The notes beneath the pieces were generated by a model. That model saw only the letters and a program-made list of their open reading frames with translations, was not told where the DNA came from and did no database searches. DNA of 64,000 nt, from the NCBI GenBank assembly GCA_021771915.1, contig JAETNY010000011.1, forward strand, positions 3,473-67,472, read 5' to 3'. This document shows positions 14,451-61,684 of the stretch, in pieces. How positions within the stretch are numbered: position 1 is the first letter of the stretch; every line of letters begins with the position of its first letter. The stretch is from Bacillota bacterium. Its GTDB lineage: Bacteria > Bacillota > Dehalobacteriia > UBA4068 > UBA4997. The position numbers and the translations under genes are program-made.

Positions 14451-15677
14451 TTAATCGCTGTTTATAGCGTCTACAATTTCCATTTTCGCCGCTTGTTTTG
14501 CCGGATATGTACCAAAAGCCCAACCAATCAATATAGTAATAACAACTGCCACTAATACAGGCCAAATAGCAGCATACAAATAACTGAAAGAAGATTGTGT
14601 CCACAGTATAAGAAATAAAACTACAAAAAAACCTGATAAGACACCTAATAAACCGCCTATCAAACCAGTAATAACCGCCTCCAGTGCAAATTGTTGCTGA
14701 ATATTGCGATTAGTTGCGCCAAAAGCCTTGCGAATACCAATTTCTTTAGTTCGAGCCTGCACACCAGCTAGCATAACATTCATAATGCCTACGCCGCCGA
14801 CAAGCAACACAATACCTGAAAAAAAACTCCAATGAATAGCATCACCAAGAATATAACCGCGTACCATTTCCGAGGTATCTCCAATGCTATAAACCTGCAA
14901 TATCCAACCATTATTTTCTTCTCTTCTAGTGCGCTCACAAAGCATTTCTTTTATTAAGACCTGGGTTTTATACATATTTTCTTTACCATTGGCACAGACA
15001 AAATATTTATCATTATAATTACCATAGGAACTTATTGATTCACCATTAATCTTTCTAGCATTAGTGTAAGGAATATAAACCTCATTATTTCTGATAGGTA
15101 TAATATCATTTTGCACATCAGCAAACACACCAATTACAGTGTAATTTTCACCCCAAATTTTCAAAGTTTGTCCTAATGCATTGCCTTCCATCAAGTCATT
15201 AGCAATACTGTGGCCAATCACACAAACATTACGCTCTCTGGAAATATCCATATATTCCAGAAAACGTCCCTCATGCAAACGCAACACCGGCACCATATCA
15301 AGATAGCTGCTGTTCACACCATAAACTCGCGCATCATCTTTCGTTCTTTCACCATATCTCACGCCTCCAGGCAAGTCAAATTCAACATATGGTGATATAC
15401 CACTGATAATCTCTGGATTGTCCTGCGCTAGTTGTTCCATATCGCTTGGCATGACTTTCATTGGCAAATCCACACTCACATAAGTCCAGGTTTGCATAAG
15501 CGTTGGAGCATATTCATCTTGCTGTATCTGAAGATCCATCAATGAAATATTATTGGCAGTCCAAGCAAAAACAAATCCAGCTATACCGATAACCATACCT
15601 AGAATAGCTTGCAAACAACGCCCTTTATTAACAAATAAACTTCTGACAGAATTTTGCAATGTTTGTCTAATATTCAT
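14451..15677 (-). CDS. Second MacB/FtsX-type ABC permease
   Basis: GGVGIMNVM..RTKEIGIRKAFGA; start placed at ATG 15677 (MNIRQ, RBS aagga; parallels MDIRQ of the paralog). Confidence 0.9.
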   Translation of the reverse strand: MNIRQTLQNSVRSLFVNKGRCLQAILGMVIGIAGFVFAWTANNISLMDLQIQQDEYAPTLMQTWTYVSVDLPMKVMPSDMEQLAQDNPEIISGISPYVEFDLPGGVRYGERTKDDARVYGVNSSYLDMVPVLRLHEGRFLEYMDISRERNVCVIGHSIANDLMEGNALGQTLKIWGENYTVIGVFADVQNDIIPIRNNEVYIPYTNARKINGESISSYGNYNDKYFVCANGKENMYKTQVLIKEMLCERTRREENNGWILQVYSIGDTSEMVRGYILGDAIHWSFFSGIVLLVGGVGIMNVMLAGVQARTKEIGIRKAFGATNRNIQQQFALEAVITGLIGGLLGVLSGFFVVLFLILWTQSSFSYLYAAIWPVLVAVVITILIGWAFGTYPAKQAAKMEIVDAINSD

Positions 15678-15755
15678 TCTATATTCCTTTGGCATAATGT
15701 TCTGATAAAATATATACAAATGTGGGCTATAAAATTTCAAAATTTATTTAAGTAA

Positions 15756-15938
15756 TTATCTGTCGCAAGGCATAGTAGACACACCACCGCAGGACATGCT
15801 ACAATCACCACAAGTATCACAATTGGAAAGACAATCATTGCATGTACCACAGCCAGTTCTGAAAGTGATTGCCTTAGTGCTATCATCAACATTTGTTCCA
15901 ACAGTTACATCCAGATCAAAATCTTCGTACATTGCCAT
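15756..15938 (-). CDS. lanA: Class I lanthipeptide precursor, FDLD leader
   Basis: MAMYEDFDLDV leader; Ser/Thr/Cys-rich core; strong RBS aggaggaggtg; same strand as lanBC. Confidence 0.93.
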   Translation of the reverse strand: MAMYEDFDLDVTVGTNVDDSTKAITFRTGCGTCNDCLSNCDTCGDCSMSCGGVSTMPCDR

Positions 15939-16027
15939 TATTTTTCACCTCCTCCTGCTTGCTGACCAAGTTTACACAAATGCGTCCTCGCATCGGCCAA
16001 CACAAACCTTTGCAACAATTATTTGCC

Positions 16028-16059
16028 GCAGATGATAGCTAAAATTTGCTATCATCTGC
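16028..16059. promoter_or_regulatory. Perfect 12-bp hairpin/operator in the lanA leader
   Basis: gcagatgatagc-taaaattt-gctatcatctgc. Confidence 0.6.
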
Positions 16060-16189
16060 AACATCGTTTTATAATGACTGGCCTTGGTAAGTATTTTATA
16101 GCCCACAAATGTATCAAATTTAATAGATTGATAAAAATTACTTTTCATAATAATCTTGTTTGATAATTTATTTAGTAATTTTTACCTTT

Positions 16190-16230
16190 CTATTATATAA
16201 GCAGCACGAGAAGGGCAAAATGTAACGCTA
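16190..16230 (-). promoter_or_regulatory. Putative ECF-sigma promoter upstream of lanA
   Basis: 35/41 identical to 17677-17717. Confidence 0.7.
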
Positions 16231-16284: not shown

Positions 16285-16327
16285 AAAAAAAAATTGCACA
16301 TCACAGAAGCAAATCTGCAATGTGCAA
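16285..16327 (-). terminator. Intrinsic terminator of the anti-sigma operon
   Basis: ttgcacat/atgtgcaa stem followed by 9 T on the minus strand. Confidence 0.75.
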
Positions 16328-16354
16328 CAAATAAAATTATCAAATTATAATTTA

Positions 16355-16783
16355 TTATACCGCAGCCGTGATAAATTCTCTGGAATCATATCCGCCTTTT
16401 TCAGCATAAAAATATACCTTGGCTCGATATTGGTAACCTGATTTAGCGCCATAATAATACACATTTGATGCATGTCGTCTGGTATTATAGGCCAACATAT
16501 TAGAATTATCATTACTGGACATTGTAGCCACCGCTGTCCAACTGCTCGAACCCAGCGCTTTCTCCTGAATAACGATCGTTTTAGCTCCGATTACATCCAT
16601 TGTGCCAGTACCGCTTATATTAAAAGTTACTGTTATTGTATTTCCAGAAGAACGAGCTGCCTGTGCCACGCAATCTGTAATATATTCACTGGAATAAATT
16701 GTAGCATTAGCAACAGATGTAATACAAAAAAATGCAACCAAAATTAATGATATTAAAGAAATTCTTTTATACATTATTTTCAC
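16355..16783 (-). CDS. Secreted hypothetical protein coupled to the anti-sigma gene
   Basis: Signal peptide ending ANA; 4-nt overlap with upstream gene. Confidence 0.8.
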   Translation of the reverse strand: MKIMYKRISLISLILVAFFCITSVANATIYSSEYITDCVAQAARSSGNTITVTFNISGTGTMDVIGAKTIVIQEKALGSSSWTAVATMSSNDNSNMLAYNTRRHASNVYYYGAKSGYQYRAKVYFYAEKGGYDSREFITAAV

Positions 16784-17661
16784 TCTCCATAAATTGAATT
16801 TATTATATTTTCAGCATCTTCTAAAGAGAAATGACCTTTAATAGAACCTGCATAATCTTCATTCCGCCATACTATTGCTCTAATACCTAAATTATCCATA
16901 ATATAATACTTGGTACCATACATTTCATATTCAGTAACTTCCGAAGTATCTTTTTCATATAATGGAGTATTATTATCGTTTATGGGAAACATATAATCTA
17001 TATACAATTCATCAATGCTGTTATTTTTTTCTCTGACAAAATCGGCACAAATACTATTTAATGCACCATCTTTGAATAAATCTACTTTATCAAATACATA
17101 ACCCTCCGGCAGCCATTCAGGCACTAATTGAAGTCCCCCAGCATAATCCGCTACAACATCAGCTAACTCGGTAGTTACGGTAACCGGTTCAAACCAAAAC
17201 TGATCGTCATTCCATCTGCCGATAACGCCAAGAGGGTTATAACCCAAAGCATATGCCGTAGCGGTCCCAATAGATAGAAACAACACCAGAACTGCTACCG
17301 CGCTAGAAAATTTACGCCAGCTTTTTTTGACAAAAGATAAAACCTTACCTTGAGAATTTTCCTGCGGAATATTATTGCTTACCTCTTTGTCCGTCTCATC
17401 ATCAAAGGTATATAACCCTTCTTCCTTTTGAGCCATAGGATAATAATATTCAAAAAATTCATTCAATGAAGTTTCAACATCTTTATGCTCAACATTACGG
17501 CGTTCCGCTATCAGATTGGCAATATATAAGGCCTCCTCCGCATCAATCTGTTCAGCTTCTGGGGCGTCAAAATCAGCTCGCAGAATCGCCTCTAAAACAG
17601 ATGTATCTAGCAAGTCGAATTTCTTATAATTTGGACACCCTTTTGCTTCGACTTTCGACAT
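16780..17661 (-). CDS. Single-pass membrane anti-sigma factor (DUF4367-like C-terminus)
   Basis: Central TM helix, VPEWLPEGY motif, directly downstream of the ECF sigma. Confidence 0.78.
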   Translation of the reverse strand: MSKVEAKGCPNYKKFDLLDTSVLEAILRADFDAPEAEQIDAEEALYIANLIAERRNVEHKDVETSLNEFFEYYYPMAQKEEGLYTFDDETDKEVSNNIPQENSQGKVLSFVKKSWRKFSSAVAVLVLFLSIGTATAYALGYNPLGVIGRWNDDQFWFEPVTVTTELADVVADYAGGLQLVPEWLPEGYVFDKVDLFKDGALNSICADFVREKNNSIDELYIDYMFPINDNNTPLYEKDTSEVTEYEMYGTKYYIMDNLGIRAIVWRNEDYAGSIKGHFSLEDAENIINSIYGE

Positions 17662-17745: not shown

Positions 17746-18333
17746 CTATTTTTTATTGCCAAATAATTTGCGTATTTTTATTCTTGCCCGATATAAACGC
17801 TGCTCAATTACTCTAATGCTCACGCCATACTTATCTGCAAGATCTTTTAAGGATTTATCCTCGACAGTAAATTCTTTTATCAGCTGGAACTCCTTATGTA
17901 CAGCTAAATCAGAATATAAGAAATCTACATCTTCATCCATAGGCTTGTTATCAACAAAATCTTCCATACCCATCTCAACACCAAATTCTATATCCGCCTG
18001 TTGAGGTAAATATACCATTAATTGTGCAAGCTGCTGTTTTTTTCTTATAATCTGCGATATAGATAACTTTAAAGATTTATAAAGCCATTTTACAGGATCA
18101 TCATATTGCATAACTTTCTCTATCTTATACTTACCATCATCATCTTTCTTATCTTTCCTGCAAAGATCTAAAAAAACATTTTGCACTGCCTCTTCCGCAT
18201 TACTTTTTTCCAAACGACCTATTGCATAATTAAAAAGCGACTCCTGATTAGTTCTATATAATTTTTCTATAAATTCTCGTTCTTCCTTAGTTAATTCACA
18301 TCGCTCCTGTCGTCGCTTGTCCATAATTCCCAT
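17746..18333 (-). CDS. ECF-type RNA polymerase sigma factor
   Basis: Region 2 AEEAVQNVFL...WLY; region 4 SLKDLADKYGVS..RLYRARIKIR. Confidence 0.85.
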   Translation of the reverse strand: MGIMDKRRQERCELTKEEREFIEKLYRTNQESLFNYAIGRLEKSNAEEAVQNVFLDLCRKDKKDDDGKYKIEKVMQYDDPVKWLYKSLKLSISQIIRKKQQLAQLMVYLPQQADIEFGVEMGMEDFVDNKPMDEDVDFLYSDLAVHKEFQLIKEFTVEDKSLKDLADKYGVSIRVIEQRLYRARIKIRKLFGNKK

Positions 18334-18353: not shown

Positions 18354-18725
18354 TCACATATTTATTATATCACTTTCCCTGGAATTTTCCAGAGCTTTAA
18401 CCAAAGTTCTCATAACATCTTCCACTATCTCCAAATCTTTTTCGTTTTTACCTTTTAATAGAGCTATAATGTTATTCATTGTAACATTGTCATCTTCCTC
18501 AGCAAATAAACTATCCATACTTATTCCAAGAATTTCCGTTATTTTAACCAACGTGTTAACAGTCATTTCCCTTGACCCATTTTCGATTTTGTTATAAAGA
18601 GGTTGTGTTATACCAATATTGTGAGCCATAAAATCTTGTGTAAGATTCATTTTCTCACGGTAAAAAAGTATATTTTTTATAAGCCTTTGTTTTACCTCAG
18701 AATCTAATTTATATTTCATTACCAA
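18354..18725 (-). CDS. XRE-family HTH regulator
   Basis: YREKMNLTQDFMAHNIGITQPLYNKIENG. Confidence 0.9.
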   Translation of the reverse strand: MVMKYKLDSEVKQRLIKNILFYREKMNLTQDFMAHNIGITQPLYNKIENGSREMTVNTLVKITEILGISMDSLFAEEDDNVTMNNIIALLKGKNEKDLEIVEDVMRTLVKALENSRESDIINM

Positions 18726-18994: not shown

Positions 18995-19966
18995 ATGGAA
19001 CAAGAAACAGCTATCAATCCACAAAAAAATCAATATGACGCAATGTGCAAAAACCTCCTAGCCAAGAAGTATACTTTGGCAAGAATTATGCAAAGTTGTA
19101 TGAGAGAATATCGGAATTACAGCTTGAATGATATTGCCGAAAACTTCATTGAAGGGCAACCTGAAATTGGCAAGACAAAAGTCTTTCCAGATGAAACAGC
19201 AATGATTGACGGTATTGCCAATGAAGATACATCGGTTGAAGAAGGTACGGTAGTTTACGATATTCGCTTTAAGGCTATCCTTCCTAAAAACGATGGCTAT
19301 ATAAACCTAATTATCAATGTAGAGGCTCAGGCGAATTTTAACCCCGGTTATCCGCTGATAATGCGCGGCATATATTATTGCAGCCGTATGCTTTCCACTC
19401 AGTACAACCGGGAATTTACTAAATCGCATTACGAAAAGCTAAAAAAGGTAGTGTCAATATGGGTTTGCACCGAGCCTACAAAACAGCGTTTTTGCACTCT
19501 GAACGAATACAATATAGCAGAGAATAATATTATTGGCAGTACGAAAGAAGATTCAGCTAACTATGATTTAATGTCAGTATTTATGATATGTTTAGGCAAC
19601 CCTGATACTGAAGATTATAATGGTATTCTTAAATATTTGGACGTTCTTTTATCAAAAAAATATTCCAAACAGGAAAAGAAACAAATACTAGAGAAAGAAT
19701 TTGATTATCATTTTAACGCTGAAACAGAAATGGAGGTCGATGAAATGTGTAATTTAGCTCAAGCGATAGAAGATAAGGGCAGAGAATTAGGCAGAATTGA
19801 AGGTATGCAAAAGGGCATTGAAAAGGGCAAGCTTGAAACCACACTTGCCAACATTCAAAGCTTGATGTACAAAGTTAGTTGGACTGCTGAACAGGCAATG
19901 GACGCACTCAATATTCCACAGGAGGAGCGCAGCCAATACCTGCCCAAACTTAAACACCTTAACTAA
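18995..19966 (+). CDS. Rpn/PD-(D/E)XK recombination-promoting nuclease family protein
   Basis: YDIRF...INVEAQ...RGIYYCSRM; C-terminal KGxExG repeats. Confidence 0.82.
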   Translation: MEQETAINPQKNQYDAMCKNLLAKKYTLARIMQSCMREYRNYSLNDIAENFIEGQPEIGKTKVFPDETAMIDGIANEDTSVEEGTVVYDIRFKAILPKNDGYINLIINVEAQANFNPGYPLIMRGIYYCSRMLSTQYNREFTKSHYEKLKKVVSIWVCTEPTKQRFCTLNEYNIAENNIIGSTKEDSANYDLMSVFMICLGNPDTEDYNGILKYLDVLLSKKYSKQEKKQILEKEFDYHFNAETEMEVDEMCNLAQAIEDKGRELGRIEGMQKGIEKGKLETTLANIQSLMYKVSWTAEQAMDALNIPQEERSQYLPKLKHLN

Positions 19967-53311: not shown

Positions 53312-53411
53312 ATATATCACTCCTTTATGCTTTGCAGGATACAACAAGAGGGAATGTGTTATCTGTTTTTACATTCCCTCTAAAACAATATTTGAATGGT
53401 AAAATCACCTA

Positions 53412-55769
53412 TTATGCTGCTAAACATTCTTCACAGCCGAGAGCCACCTCACCGCAAAGCCGCATAAATACAGGCTTTTTAACTCTTTGATTTATTTTAT
53501 CTTCTTTCCGCAAATTGAAAATGTTGTTCTTGGTATAGCTCATCATTTCCTCTGCAACGTCAGTATCACGGATAGAAGATTCAGCGTCCTGAATGTTCTC
53601 GCGCATTACAGACAGGTTGTTGCTGGTATGGTCCAGACGGTTGCTCAAAGCGCCCAATGTACCACGAACAGAGGATACACTGTTGATAGCGTCTTTGATT
53701 ACGTTAATCGCAGCCTTTGCGCCCTCGGCAGTGCCAATATTAATACCGTCAATGCCCAAAGAAGCAGTGTGCATATCCTTAACGGAAACAGCCAGCTGGT
53801 TGAAATCATCAGATGTATCGCCAATCTGTAATGTCAAGGCACGACCCTCATAGCTATTGCTGGAAAGCTCAACCTTAGCGCCAATACGCTGTTCCTCAAC
53901 ATCAGTACCACTAATATCCTTGGATGTCAGGGTCATCTTGTTCCCATCGATTGTAACATTATACTTGGTAGCAGAACCACCAAAGGCCAAGTTTTTATTA
54001 ATAGCATTCTTCAATTCTATCAGAACATCATTAGTATTATATTCCGGAACTGTGCCGCCATTAGCCAAACCGAGTTTGGAAAGGTTAACAACAATATTTT
54101 GCTTCCCACCGGTTGCATTATCACCGTCAGTAAATTCAAAGGTTACACCATCAATAGTGATAGTATCGCCCTCTTTAATTTTAGTAACGTCCAGTTCAAA
54201 TGATACGCTGGCGGCTGCTTCTTTACTTGTACCAAAGAACTGCTTCATAACGCCGGCCTCTGTGCGCATATCGCAAACTGTACCCGTAGTACCGCCACCA
54301 ATATAGGCTGGATGATTTGCCGCAGAATTTGTATCACCATCATATGTGGAAAGAGATTGGAAAGTCAAAGTACCTTTACCGCCACTTACGCCGCCGTTAC
54401 CAACAGACCAGGTATTATTTTTATTGGTTTCATTAGTAGCGTTTTGATTTACAACGGAACCCATTTCGCCAACAATTTTAACCATAGCCGCAGCTTGTTT
54501 ATCTGCATCTAATAAATCAGCTTCGGTCTTGAAAATGTCTGTTAAATCAATAGTCTTCTTGCCACTGGTGCCATCATTAGCTGCCGTATTCAAACTGTCC
54601 AGTTTGAAATCATATTTCATATCGCCAACGTTCAGCGTATCGCCGTCTTTCAGCTTACTGAAATCAAGGTCAACGCTAACCTGCGCCTGATGTGTAGCGC
54701 CAATACCAATACCCGTCTTCGTATTTTGAACTTTCCAGTTCAAAGTACCGGTATCATCAGTGTTCTTAGCTTTCATTTCCACATCAAAATCCGGGTGAAT
54801 TGTGGTTCCTGCATCCTTACCCATCCAGTCAACCTGAGTAAAGGTTACAGTATTTCCAGCAGCAGACATTGCATAATAATGACCATCAATTTTTACATAA
54901 TTACTAGCAGGACTACCAGAGCCAGCCGCTAATCCGGCTTCCCAGTCAGCAGCCGTGCCTGCATCTGTTGTCATATCGGCTTTATTATCGGACTGATGCT
55001 TAATTGCATTAGCAGTTGTCTGCTTCATACCTGACTTAGCCAACTGCGCAGCAATATCACTTGCCGTCATAGCCTTGCCGGCAGAAGCAGCTTTAACCTC
55101 AAGCGTGGCGTCGCCGATTTTTACTTCCAAAGTTGCAGTAGTAGCCGCAGATTTTGGCTGAACAGCGGTTTTATCATCAAAAGTAATTTTGAACTGAGCA
55201 TTTTGCTGTTTAGTTGCAGCTTCCGGGCGATTGGTTATATAAGTAGCTTCAAAAGCATCGCTCGGGCGGTCTTCAGCCATATAATCAGTTGTGATAACAT
55301 TCTGGATTGCACTGCCCGCACTGATGTTAGCGGTACTTTCAGCGTCCAGAGAGCCGTCCAACAGCTTAATGCCGTTGAAGTTGGCGCTGTCAGCGATACG
55401 GTTAATTTCATCGCGCAGCTGGTCAACTTCAGCCTGCAAATTCTTGCGGTCAACCTCGTTGTCGAAAGTGCCGTTGGCAGATTCAGTTGCCAGATAAACC
55501 ATACGGTTCATCATGTCCTGAATTTCCTGCATAGCGCCCTCGGCAGTGTTTACCAGAGAGATGCCGTCCTTAACGTTCTTCTGGGCAGCTTCCAAACCGG
55601 TAATCTGAGCGCGCATTTTTTCGGAGATAGCCAGACCGGCAGCGTCATCGCCAGCGCGGTTAATCTTGTAACCAGATGACAATTTCTCCAGGTTTTTGCT
55701 CAAAGCAGAAGTGTTCTTGTTGTAGTTACGATAGGCGTTCATCGCCATAATGTTGTGTTGAATACGCAT
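53412..55769 (-). CDS. fliC: Flagellin with large variable domain; native C-terminus replaced by 35 ICE-encoded residues
   Basis: MRIQHN, LSSGYKINRAGDDAAGLAISE; ESSIRDTDVAEEMMSYTKNNI then unrelated sequence. Confidence 0.95.
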   Translation of the reverse strand: MRIQHNIMAMNAYRNYNKNTSALSKNLEKLSSGYKINRAGDDAAGLAISEKMRAQITGLEAAQKNVKDGISLVNTAEGAMQEIQDMMNRMVYLATESANGTFDNEVDRKNLQAEVDQLRDEINRIADSANFNGIKLLDGSLDAESTANISAGSAIQNVITTDYMAEDRPSDAFEATYITNRPEAATKQQNAQFKITFDDKTAVQPKSAATTATLEVKIGDATLEVKAASAGKAMTASDIAAQLAKSGMKQTTANAIKHQSDNKADMTTDAGTAADWEAGLAAGSGSPASNYVKIDGHYYAMSAAGNTVTFTQVDWMGKDAGTTIHPDFDVEMKAKNTDDTGTLNWKVQNTKTGIGIGATHQAQVSVDLDFSKLKDGDTLNVGDMKYDFKLDSLNTAANDGTSGKKTIDLTDIFKTEADLLDADKQAAAMVKIVGEMGSVVNQNATNETNKNNTWSVGNGGVSGGKGTLTFQSLSTYDGDTNSAANHPAYIGGGTTGTVCDMRTEAGVMKQFFGTSKEAAASVSFELDVTKIKEGDTITIDGVTFEFTDGDNATGGKQNIVVNLSKLGLANGGTVPEYNTNDVLIELKNAINKNLAFGGSATKYNVTIDGNKMTLTSKDISGTDVEEQRIGAKVELSSNSYEGRALTLQIGDTSDDFNQLAVSVKDMHTASLGIDGINIGTAEGAKAAINVIKDAINSVSSVRGTLGALSNRLDHTSNNLSVMRENIQDAESSIRDTDVAEEMMSYTKNNIFNLRKEDKINQRVKKPVFMRLCGEVALGCEECLAA

Positions 55770-60610: not shown

Positions 60611-61684
60611 ATGGCCGCTTTCAAAGATAAACATAATGGCACTTGGTATGTGCAGTTCCGTTACACGGATTGGCGAGGCGAGCGCAAACAAAAACTCAAG
60701 CGAGGTTTCGCCAGCAAACGGGATGCACAGGCTTGGGAACGGGAATTTCTGATGCAGAAGCAGGCTGATGTTAATATGACCTTTGCCAGCTTCGTCCAAC
60801 TTTATGAAAAAGACATCAAACCAAAATTAAAACTGAACACCTGGCTGTCCAAGGAGAATATTATTAAGAATAAAATTCTACCCTATTTTGCCAAGCGCAA
60901 GCTGGCTGAAATAACAACCCGTGATATAATCAATTGGCAGAATGAAATCCGTTCCCTCACCGATTGCCGTGGCAAACCTTATTCGCCCGACTATCTAAAA
61001 AATGTGCATACTCAGTTAAGCTGCATATTCAATCACGCCATTAAATACTATGGTTTGCAAATCAACCCAGCCTCCAAGGTGGGCAATATGGGCAGCGAAC
61101 AACCCAAGGAAATGGAATTTTGGACAAAAGCCGAATATCTGCAATTTCTGGAAGCAATGTTGGACAAGCCGCTATCCTATTATGCTTTTGAAATGCTTTA
61201 CTGGTGCGGTATTCGAGAGGGCGAACTGCTGGCGCTAACCCCAGACGATTTTGATTTCACCAACAACACAGTCAGAATAAACAAATCCTATCAGCGAATT
61301 AACAAGCAAGATATTATTACCTCGCCTAAAACCAAGAAAAGCAACCGAATTGTGCAAATGCCGGATTTTCTCAGCGAGGAAATACAGGATTACCTAAACC
61401 AACTCTACGGAGCAGAACCAAATAGCCGCATTTTTCCGATAACCAAGCATTATCTCAAACACGAAATGCAGCGAGGCTGCAAGGAAACCGGCGTTAAACC
61501 AATTCGGATACACGACCTACGACACAGCCATATTTCACTTTTGATTGATATGGGCTTTACGGCTTTGGCAATCGCCGATAGGGTTGGCCACGAAAGTATC
61601 GACATCACCTATCGTTATGCTCACCTGTTTCCCACCAGACAGCAGGAAATGGCTCAAAAATTAAATATGGAAAGGAAGAATTAA
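60611..61684 (+). CDS. int: Tyrosine integrase
   Basis: GIREGE, PKT, HDLRHSH, VGH, YAH. Confidence 0.96.
   Translation: MAAFKDKHNGTWYVQFRYTDWRGERKQKLKRGFASKRDAQAWEREFLMQKQADVNMTFASFVQLYEKDIKPKLKLNTWLSKENIIKNKILPYFAKRKLAEITTRDIINWQNEIRSLTDCRGKPYSPDYLKNVHTQLSCIFNHAIKYYGLQINPASKVGNMGSEQPKEMEFWTKAEYLQFLEAMLDKPLSYYAFEMLYWCGIREGELLALTPDDFDFTNNTVRINKSYQRINKQDIITSPKTKKSNRIVQMPDFLSEEIQDYLNQLYGAEPNSRIFPITKHYLKHEMQRGCKETGVKPIRIHDLRHSHISLLIDMGFTALAIADRVGHESIDITYRYAHLFPTRQQEMAQKLNMERKN

Follow-up and report, generated by a model that had tools for sequence, protein, structure and literature searches.

The window analysed in this study is a stretch of 64,000 nucleotides from a Bacillota bacterium (assembly GCA_021771915.1, contig JAETNY010000011.1, positions 3,473 to 67,472), part of which is occupied by an integrative and conjugative element (ICE) with a lanthipeptide (lan) locus. 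In this locus lanA, the gene for a class I lanthipeptide precursor, is bracketed by a 15-nt inverted repeat which recurs, with its complementarity kept, around a different lanA in a paralogous element of the same genome. On the basis of this comparison and of RNA folding we rate at about even the chance that the two arms are the strands of a long-range 5'/3' RNA duplex in the lanA operon transcript.

The repeat consists of tgtgggctataaaat at positions 15721-15735 and its exact reverse complement, attttatagcccaca, at 16093-16107. The arms lie 357 nt apart and span 387 bp (15721 to 16107), or 389 bp when one AA is included. Beyond the 15 perfect pairs the complementarity continues outwards across an AA/AA mismatch into five further pairs (ATACA/TGTAT), and a repeat finder reported 35-nt arms at 80% complementarity (15701-15735 and 16093-16127). 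On the plus strand the two ends read ATACA-AA-TGTGG and CCACA-AA-TGTAT, both outer junctions being acaAAtgt (15716-15723 and 16105-16112) with a small ACA-NN-TGT dyad at each. The perfect repeat, the identically oriented junctions and the sizes of 387 and 389 bp had all been described correctly in an initial annotation made from the DNA alone; its statement that the arms enclose only lanA, its ribosome binding site (RBS) and its leader was nearly right, the interval also holding 155 nt of 5' untranslated region (UTR) with a local 16-bp hairpin (16063..16024, minus strand) found by repeat search and by folding.

The 2.3-Mb genome contains seven perfect inverted repeats of at least 15 nt with gaps of 100-1000 nt, compared with a total of eight in three shuffled genomes. 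The window holds no exact copy of the arm beyond the two, and five matches with up to three mismatches where 3.6 are expected. Across 224 loci (1.3 Mb) the arm motif, at up to two mismatches, gave extra scattered single matches (L179, L195) at approximately the chance rate. Since a single repeat of this size is unremarkable genome-wide, the case for a function rests on comparison: the repeat is not significant by itself, and it is its recurrence in the paralogous locus that makes it non-random. Other perfect inverted repeats of this genome (16-21 nt, gaps of 100-600 nt) lie on contig C12 (1280-1300/1840-1860; at 21 nt the longest in the genome), on C29 (177267-177282/177390-177405) and, within the second lan element, on C3 (32523-32538/33145-33160).

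The second lan element is found on contig C3 (approximately 35800-56750; L003 and L183 cover part of it). It has the same gene order as the element in the window, from the helix-turn-helix (HTH) gene to two large serine recombinase genes, and carries an extra FtsX gene. Its arms, TGTGAGCTATAAAAT and a near-complement 359 nt onward, occupy the same two places around a lanA whose product has the leader MAIYEDFDLDV and an unrelated 41-aa core. Among the backbone proteins the identities between the two loci are 82% (HlyD), 86% (ABC), 79% (second FtsX), 82% (LanT), 83% (recombinases) and 78% (HTH), while LanB and LanC are 70% and 68% identical. The values are 59% for a 142-aa protein (p142), 47% for a DUF4367 protein, 33-43% for the first FtsX and 31% for the sigma factor. 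Synonymous third positions are identical at a frequency of 0.60 (1594/2642), which is close to saturation.

The stem is conserved well beyond this level. Its 5' strand is identical to that of C3 at 21 of 22 positions and its 3' strand at 20 of 22; at 0.60 per site, 41 or more identical positions out of 44 have a probability of ca. 9e-7. The same pattern is seen in a second predicted stem, a 13-bp hairpin at the 5' terminus of the transcript, whose strands are identical at 12/13 and 13/13 positions, with 12 of the 13 pairs kept and a loop that is 52% identical. Outside the stems the identity is 47% in the UTR just inside the 5' arm, 39% in the lanA core, 48% in the 3' UTR and 38% in the stretch before the promoter; paired strands are thus 91-100% identical between the loci, as against 38-52% for loops and spacers.

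Eighteen of the 20 pairs in the long stem are unchanged, one has gone from G-C to A-U by changes on both sides, and the innermost is lost in C3. Compensatory changes in homologs had been proposed in the initial annotation as a check on an mRNA stem, and the G-C to A-U replacement is one such change; complementarity with compensation is seen at two loci, which is a thin basis. The terminator hairpin of the upstream gene, compared between the same loci, has changed at 4 of 15 pairs, two of them compensatory, and since this RNA hairpin has itself changed to that extent, the arms with 2 changed pairs of 20 are not unusually rigid.

A further part of the bracketed segment is conserved. A 49-nt block of the 5' UTR (16026..15978, minus strand) is identical to C3 at 45 positions, and over this block, the RBS and the first 11 codons (15906-16026) the nucleotide identity is 89-94%, the leader itself matching at 31 of 33 nt. 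At synonymous third positions of the leader 8 of 9 are identical by manual count (P = 0.07). Such identity exceeds what protein constraint requires and points to constraint at the RNA level or to patchy recombination around a hypervariable core. The 49-nt block had no match near threshold in Rfam, the three candidate matches all falling far under their gathering scores. The 16-bp hairpin at 16063..16024 is replaced at the same relative place in C3 by a different, shorter one.

The lan genes are read from the minus strand. In the 415-nt gap between the gene for the 142-aa protein and lanA lies a promoter-like box, GTTACA-N21-TATATAATAGA (16226..16189), about 85 nt upstream of the 5' arm. It recurs in homologous loci and is probably a promoter read by the locus's own extracytoplasmic function (ECF)-type sigma factor. 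We infer a transcript start near 16186 on the minus strand, and the RNA would open with the 13-bp hairpin (16186..16174 paired with 16142..16130 around a 31-nt loop), which is predicted in both the minimum free energy (MFE) and the centroid structures of both loci. The 5' strand of the long stem follows in the 5' UTR at 16114..16093 (AUACA, UU and the 15-nt arm, 16107..16093), about 80 nt past the start so placed, 155 nt upstream of the lanA start and about 140 nt upstream of the RBS (AGGAGGAGGTG, 15956..15946). The 3' strand (15735..15706) comprises the arm (15735..15721), UU, UGUAU (15718..15714) and then U-rich sequence as far as 15706. Its beginning is 20 nt past the lanA stop; its arm ends about 40 nt, and the U-rich run about 30 nt, before the start of the first FtsX gene. 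No local terminator-like hairpin was found between lanA and FtsX.

The locus is present in six metatranscriptome runs (X15-X20), and the contigs of four of these, from four studies, were aligned. High-depth contigs from three studies (X16, 15000-16172; X18, 15170-16130; X19, 15244-16127) each run unbroken from the 5' arm through lanA and the 3' arm into the start of FtsX, and they extend 20-65 nt upstream of the 5' arm. Contigs from RNA libraries are blind to strand, ends and levels, and DNA may occur in such libraries; these are compatible with one transcript holding both arms, short of proof, and they argue against the 5' arm as the lanA promoter. Both the X18 and the X19 contig break off without loose ends at the base of the predicted 5' hairpin, at positions that differ by 3 nt, which is a weak hint only. 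Stretches without coverage (16173-16355 in X16; above 16130 in X18 and X19) are of no evidential use. At the other side the X18 and X19 high-depth contigs end within FtsX (15170, 15244) and lower-depth ones continue; with one depth value per contig this is not readable as a drop in level. In X15 the low-depth contigs break at the arm (16092/16093) because the run also contains the C3 paralog, and their loose ends read as C3 sequence.

Other roles of the 5' arm in transcription or translation were considered and set aside. As a sigma-70 promoter its best match is 9/12, and the region as a whole contains 9 such sites where 7.9 are expected. The spacing does not fit the conserved box if the arms are taken as promoters for the sigma factor of the locus. 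A 58-aa ORF (16148..15972) which spans the 5' arm has no start codon in C3.

When the RNA of each locus was folded from the inferred start to just beyond the 3' arm, the long-range stem was found in the MFE and centroid structures of both. The arm pairs have probabilities of 0.87-1.0 in the window RNA and, for 14 of the 15, of 0.88-1.0 in C3. The MFE z-scores are -5.8 (window) and -3.8 (C3), none of 100 shuffled sequences being as stable, and the isolated duplexes have energies of -27.0 and -24.6 kcal/mol, respectively. The 13-bp terminal hairpin accounts for the conserved block upstream of the arm, which pairing with the 3' side could not.

The model that we favour would run as follows. Transcription would start just past the promoter-like box, near 16186, giving an RNA that opens with the 13-bp terminal hairpin. 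The arms would then pair (5 bp, UU/UU, 15 bp) and close the RBS and the lanA ORF into a 357-nt domain, so that the duplex might stand in for the local hairpin which is usual after lanA in lantibiotic operons. RNase III acts on double-stranded RNA of about two helical turns, a size which the stem of 5 bp, 2x2 internal loop and 15 bp possesses with its length of about 22 bp, and the genome encodes the enzyme (PF14622, 127.5 bits, contig C29). A staggered cut by RNase III in the duplex is a tentative refinement, to which we assign somewhat more than half of the weight given to the duplex as a whole. It would free a lanA mRNA with paired, stable ends and leave an FtsX-HlyD-ABC-LanBCT message with a vulnerable 5' end, the outcome being much precursor and little machinery from one promoter. 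Were there no cleavage, the duplex could clamp and protect the ends, as in the hbs mRNA of Bacillus subtilis, or aid termination before the U-rich run.

Several points weigh against a duplex. There are only two independent pairs of arms and a single two-sided change, and that change could also arise if the arms copy one protein site. Unpaired parts are conserved as well, namely the UU/UU mismatch, a spacer of 15 nt that precedes the stem (14/15) and the U-rich flank (7/8). In three of the four runs the RNA contigs cross the 3' arm into FtsX, so that cleavage or termination there is at most partial. Folding takes no account of ribosomes or kinetics, and about 370 nt must be transcribed before the 5' arm meets its partner.

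The structure moreover rests on one genome and a remnant. The latter is a solo 3' element in another genome, G005 (L021 9680-9846, contig C26), where it precedes an FtsX gene within a cluster of transporter genes that has no lanA. The element's core, TTTTATAGCNCACATTTGTATATATTT, is the same in the window, in C3 and in this solo copy but for one variable position; over its length the solo copy matches that of C3 at 28 of 29 positions, although no partner arm was found within 19 kb and the FtsX proteins that follow the element in the three loci are only 30-42% identical. A 29-codon remnant of an HlyD gene is fused there to sequence that aligns with the end of lanA, from its last codon and stop into the 3' UTR, which indicates that a deletion removed lanA in G005. 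If that deletion is recent the solo arm is uninformative; if it is old, the conservation would speak for a sequence-specific role of the element itself, beyond pairing.

In the initial annotation an mRNA stem and an excisable cassette were held to be equally compatible with the repeat. That balance has shifted towards the stem, given the box upstream of the arms, the RNA contigs, the pairing kept in C3 and the conservation of the paired strands; the strand and the ends of the RNA lie beyond the reach of the contigs.

The best of the alternatives, which we nevertheless consider unlikely, is that both arms represent a DNA site recognised by one protein (the XRE-type repressor encoded at 18725..18354, or another), which would act as a roadblock or loop the DNA around lanA. 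It would explain why the sequence itself is conserved at 41 of 44 positions and why the solo element of G005 keeps that sequence without a partner, and it agrees with the identity of the XRE protein between the loci (78%, compared with 31% for the sigma factor and 47% for the anti-sigma factor) and with the small ACA-NN-TGT dyad at each junction. Yet the regulator's own promoter region has no arm-like site, and the only third near-match, at 18620 with two mismatches, falls inside the coding region of the HTH gene and is not conserved in C3. A single arm is no palindrome of the size needed by a dimeric HTH protein, and a matched change in both copies would be unexpected for independent operators. 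The neighbouring 5' hairpin, where the stem is likewise conserved and the loop diverged, fits RNA.

It is also rather improbable that the repeat has no function, being a relic of a precursor insertion or duplication that was carried along with conserved regulatory sequence or homogenised by recombination. Its restriction to one genome and a remnant, and the rarity of lanA relatives, are in keeping with such an origin, and the unusual conservation of the UTR block and leader would fit patchy recombination between loci for ribosomally synthesized and post-translationally modified peptides (RiPPs). A relic does not explain stems that are 91-100% identical beside spacers at 38-52%, a two-sided change that keeps the pairing, the probability of ca. 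9e-7 under the synonymous-site rate, or the retention of the element in a third lineage in front of an FtsX protein only 30-42% identical.

There is, in our estimate, a small probability that the 387-bp unit works at the level of DNA, either as a phase-variable switch with constitutive immunity or as a promoterless mini-cassette that is excised and exchanged between att-like ends, which would amount to an integron-like arrangement for RiPP precursors operated by large serine recombinases. The conservation of the arms, the AA core, the solo arm of G005 and the tandem FtsX arrays of relatives (see below) are compatible with this. Since recombination between inverted arms inverts rather than excises, an inverton is the more natural form of the idea. 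A flip of the 357-bp segment would place lanA antisense to the promoter and leave the immunity and biosynthesis genes transcribed. With arms of 15-35 nt and a few hundred bp between them, the unit matches the anatomy of published gut invertons (PMC11892184), and the organism occurs in mouse gut samples; the arm sequence is conserved like a recombinase site, and between the two elements the recombinases show 83% identity.

We consider inversion very unlikely all the same. A single orientation is present in all assemblies and RNA contigs, and no strand-changing joint was seen in the four runs, a weak argument, since rare forms are lost from contigs. The neighbourhood has no small invertase: on this contig the serine recombinases are limited to the two large ones 13 kb off, the nearest tyrosine recombinase (61124-61633) is about 45 kb away and outside the ICE, and the sole small gene of resolvase type (240 aa) lies on a different contig. 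If AA is the crossover core, finally, it reads on the same strand at both sites, an arrangement from which serine recombinases produce deletion and not inversion.

The proposal of the initial annotation, a 387-bp excisable or exchangeable precursor cassette with attL/attR-like ends moved by a large serine recombinase of the ICE, is the least probable of all and is unsupported by the assembled sequence, which contains no empty site, circle, joint or cassette-shaped divergence. Its geometry was correctly drawn: with AA as core each end looks like a hybrid att site, its quasi-symmetric half-sites flanking an AA that is on the same strand in both, and the inner arms, once joined, would form a perfect palindrome. 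The two large serine recombinases are indeed within the ICE. One of its predictions, that a related element would carry another lanA within these repeats, is borne out by C3. The divergence is not confined to such a cassette, however. It takes in at least 4 kb from the sigma factor gene to the first FtsX gene, compared with a backbone at about 80%, and within the supposed cassette the identity is 92-94% in the leader and over much of the UTR. The exchange was to have occurred under fixed lanBCT machinery, but LanB and LanC (70% and 68% identical) have diverged beyond the backbone, and C3 and the window therefore differ by co-divergence of the whole module and not by a swap.

Direct traces of excision were likewise absent. 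The predicted empty site and circle junction gave no match with up to three mismatches in 3.5 Mb, none of 13 other p140-family loci has an empty p140-promoter-FtsX arrangement, and no joints of any kind were reported in the contigs of the four RNA runs. The solo arm in G005 differs from the predicted empty site, its breakpoint being at the lanA stop and 3' UTR and not at AA. We know of no serine-recombinase precedent for a 389-bp circle without a replication or recombinase gene. One contig of a metagenome-assembled genome (MAG; L009, CATJCJ010000320.1), which carries the C3-type locus, stops precisely where the 5' arm has its outer edge; that MAG holds nothing beyond, a single contig end is without weight, and the assembly may have broken there because the site is polymorphic or repeated.

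The AAtgt at 53520-53524, cited in the initial annotation as additional support for the cassette, is present and does lie at a real boundary between ICE and host. As support it fails, being a trivial 5-mer at a junction that resembles the arm at only 7 of 15 positions (manual count; one ICE end compared). The ICE boundary falls inside a flagellin-like gene, in its 3' end (ORF 53412..55769; boundary region approximately 53369-53530), and homology to uninterrupted flagellin-like copies in relatives begins at about 53520. On contig C16 (5662-5820), beside another large serine recombinase gene, a second element has an 85% identical end at an ATGTTGTT target.

The genes upstream of lanA, all on the minus strand, encode the XRE-type HTH protein (18725..18354), the ECF-type sigma factor (18333..17746), the DUF4367 protein, a putative anti-sigma factor (17661..16780), and the secreted-looking p142 of the p140 family (16783..16355), which is followed by its terminator hairpin (16328..16293). 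Homologs of the p140 family were collected from 185,579 species genomes, which gave four loci, and from 72 genomes of the class, which gave 14 places. A box of the form GTnAC[CA] (or GGAAAC), N19-21, TATA..TAG[AG] was found 100-160 nt past the p140 stop in 10 of 15 loci, whatever gene follows. Arms are restricted to the two loci in which that gene is lanA; the other p140 loci have secreted-protein cargo and no arms. The four loci of the species-genome search for the 142-aa neighbour comprise the C3 locus as found in a different MAG, where it breaks off at the 5' arm, two loci with other cargo, and one that is unrelated downstream. Modules of sigma factor, DUF4367 protein and 140-aa protein recur, with five copies in this genome (G000) alone (loci with the box include L174, L176, L179, L180, L184, L185, L186 and L010), and look like a portable sigma/anti-sigma expression platform which mobile elements may use for varied cargo (lanA operons, secreted proteins). 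Divergent from the XRE gene is a 323-aa ORF (18995-19966, plus strand) with a weak, sub-threshold match to TIGR01784 (Rpn-family recombination-promoting nucleases, E 8e-4).

The lanA gene (15938..15756, minus strand) encodes a 60-aa precursor with the leader MAMYEDFDLDV (residues 1-11), which we take to carry an F-D/N-L-D type box, and with nine Cys and many Ser/Thr in residues 26-60. Its assignment to class I agrees with the presence downstream of LanB (PF04738 and PF14028, E 1.5e-116) and LanC (PF05147, E 2.8e-42). The next gene in the operon, on the same strand, specifies an FtsX/MacB-type permease with a putative role in immunity or export (15677..14451); after it come HlyD, ABC and a second FtsX, then LanB, LanC and LanT, with the two large serine recombinase genes at the left end of the window, 13 kb from the unit. 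The lanA product matched no Pfam family and no relevant NCBIfam family, and lanA-like proteins form only three clusters among 5.8 billion proteins; one relative, P0002, encoded on a contig of 2317 nt, is 70% identical.

Searches for further bracketed precursors added little. A DNA search of the family (14 genomes) and of a phylum sample (401 genomes) returned, beyond the window, C3 and G005, only short chance or RBS-like matches, and neither an FtsX search in the order (50 genomes) nor a motif scan of FtsX arrays revealed other arms. There was no match in plasmids by blastn, nor in viral contigs by arm pattern or FtsX alignment. A metagenome scan based on the lanA alignment gave 201 pattern matches, none confirmed by tblastn. 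In a second, which used a leader pattern whose degenerate Leu codon also reads Phe, none of the 80 listed loci was lanA; it caught the YEDFDFDV of large redox-enzyme subunits, presumably NuoD or hydrogenase proteins.

Tandem arrays of up to eight FtsX/MacB-type paralogs without lanA were observed in G004 (L171, contig C91), G008 (L172, contig C24), G005 (L021, contig C26) and on contig C16 of G000 (79889-86622). Their members are 35-59% identical to the first FtsX of the window, and may be stockpiled orphan immunity genes.

In lantibiotic operons a hairpin or a leaky terminator usually follows lanA, presumably so that more message is made for the precursor than for the enzymes. The unrelated subtilin-like lanA of genome G261 has a perfect 12-bp hairpin 18 nt past its stop. 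The long stem described here would occupy the same place in the operon and serve the same presumed purpose, with the difference that its 5' half lies 357 nt upstream. The LanB family occurs in three of the 401 genomes of the phylum sample, G000 included, which are too few to judge the generality of bracketing stems; a weak 35-nt bracketing repeat (71%) around the G261 lanA was treated as chance. In G261 (L223 5080-7357, contig C14) the subtilin-like lanA (57 aa) is followed by a LanB frame with two TGA stops in its first part, and this LanB gene may be broken or split.

If the duplex acts as envisaged, it would offer a compact route by which the fate of a precursor mRNA is separated from that of the enzyme and immunity genes on the same promoter, with stem halves in the 5' UTR and behind the ORF doing the work of a local terminator. 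In engineered lanthipeptide pathways it might also become a part with which to tune the ratio of precursor to enzyme. Greater importance would attach to the DNA-level alternative, if true, since it would introduce a bacteriocin cassette, mobile or phase-variable, of a new kind.

The att sites of large serine recombinases (attL/attR) have a two-base, non-palindromic core in the same orientation and quasi-symmetric half-sites, the inner ones inverted. The unit shares this core and half-site geometry but has no internal recombinase, is only 387 bp long, and has borders that do not coincide with the borders of divergence. In the precursors of 16S and 23S rRNA and in the early mRNAs of phage T7, RNase III stems bracket a functional RNA and leave paired ends after the cut. 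Pairing of flanks over a long distance is common to these and to the lan stem; theirs are end-mapped, whereas cleavage of the lan stem is a prediction and RNA contigs cross its 3' arm. The icaR duplex of Staphylococcus aureus is reportedly an RNase III target in which pairing covers the Shine-Dalgarno sequence and represses translation; at lanA repression by occlusion of the RBS is unlikely, because the 5' arm is about 140 nt upstream of it. The base pairing of the icaR 5' UTR with its 3' UTR comes from a paper that also treats RNase III (PMC3868564). Gut-bacterial invertons (PMC11892184; bioRxiv 10.1101/2023.03.11.532203) have inverted repeats around a few hundred bp and resemble the unit in repeat length and gut host, while the unit differs in having its promoter outside the repeat, no nearby invertase and one orientation seen.

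The closest parallel is the hbs mRNA of B. subtilis, in which a 14-bp pairing of the 5' UTR with the 3' UTR modulates ribonuclease access (Braun, Durand and Condon 2017, PMC5737220). Both hbs and lanA are short ORFs of a Firmicute, hbs being highly expressed, with duplexes and bracketed RNAs of close length; in hbs it is cleavage by RNase Y that is modulated, on a monocistronic message with its own terminator, whereas the 3' strand of the lan stem is within an operon and the stem has 20 pairs. Among the full-text literature matches listed, judged by title, none describes a 5'/3'-UTR interaction for a RiPP precursor. To our knowledge very few such interactions (hbs, icaR) are known in bacteria at all. 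Long-range pairing of mRNA ends and bracketing stems for RNase III are thus familiar, and what appears to be new, as far as the literature shows, is a conserved stem that brackets a RiPP precursor within its operon.

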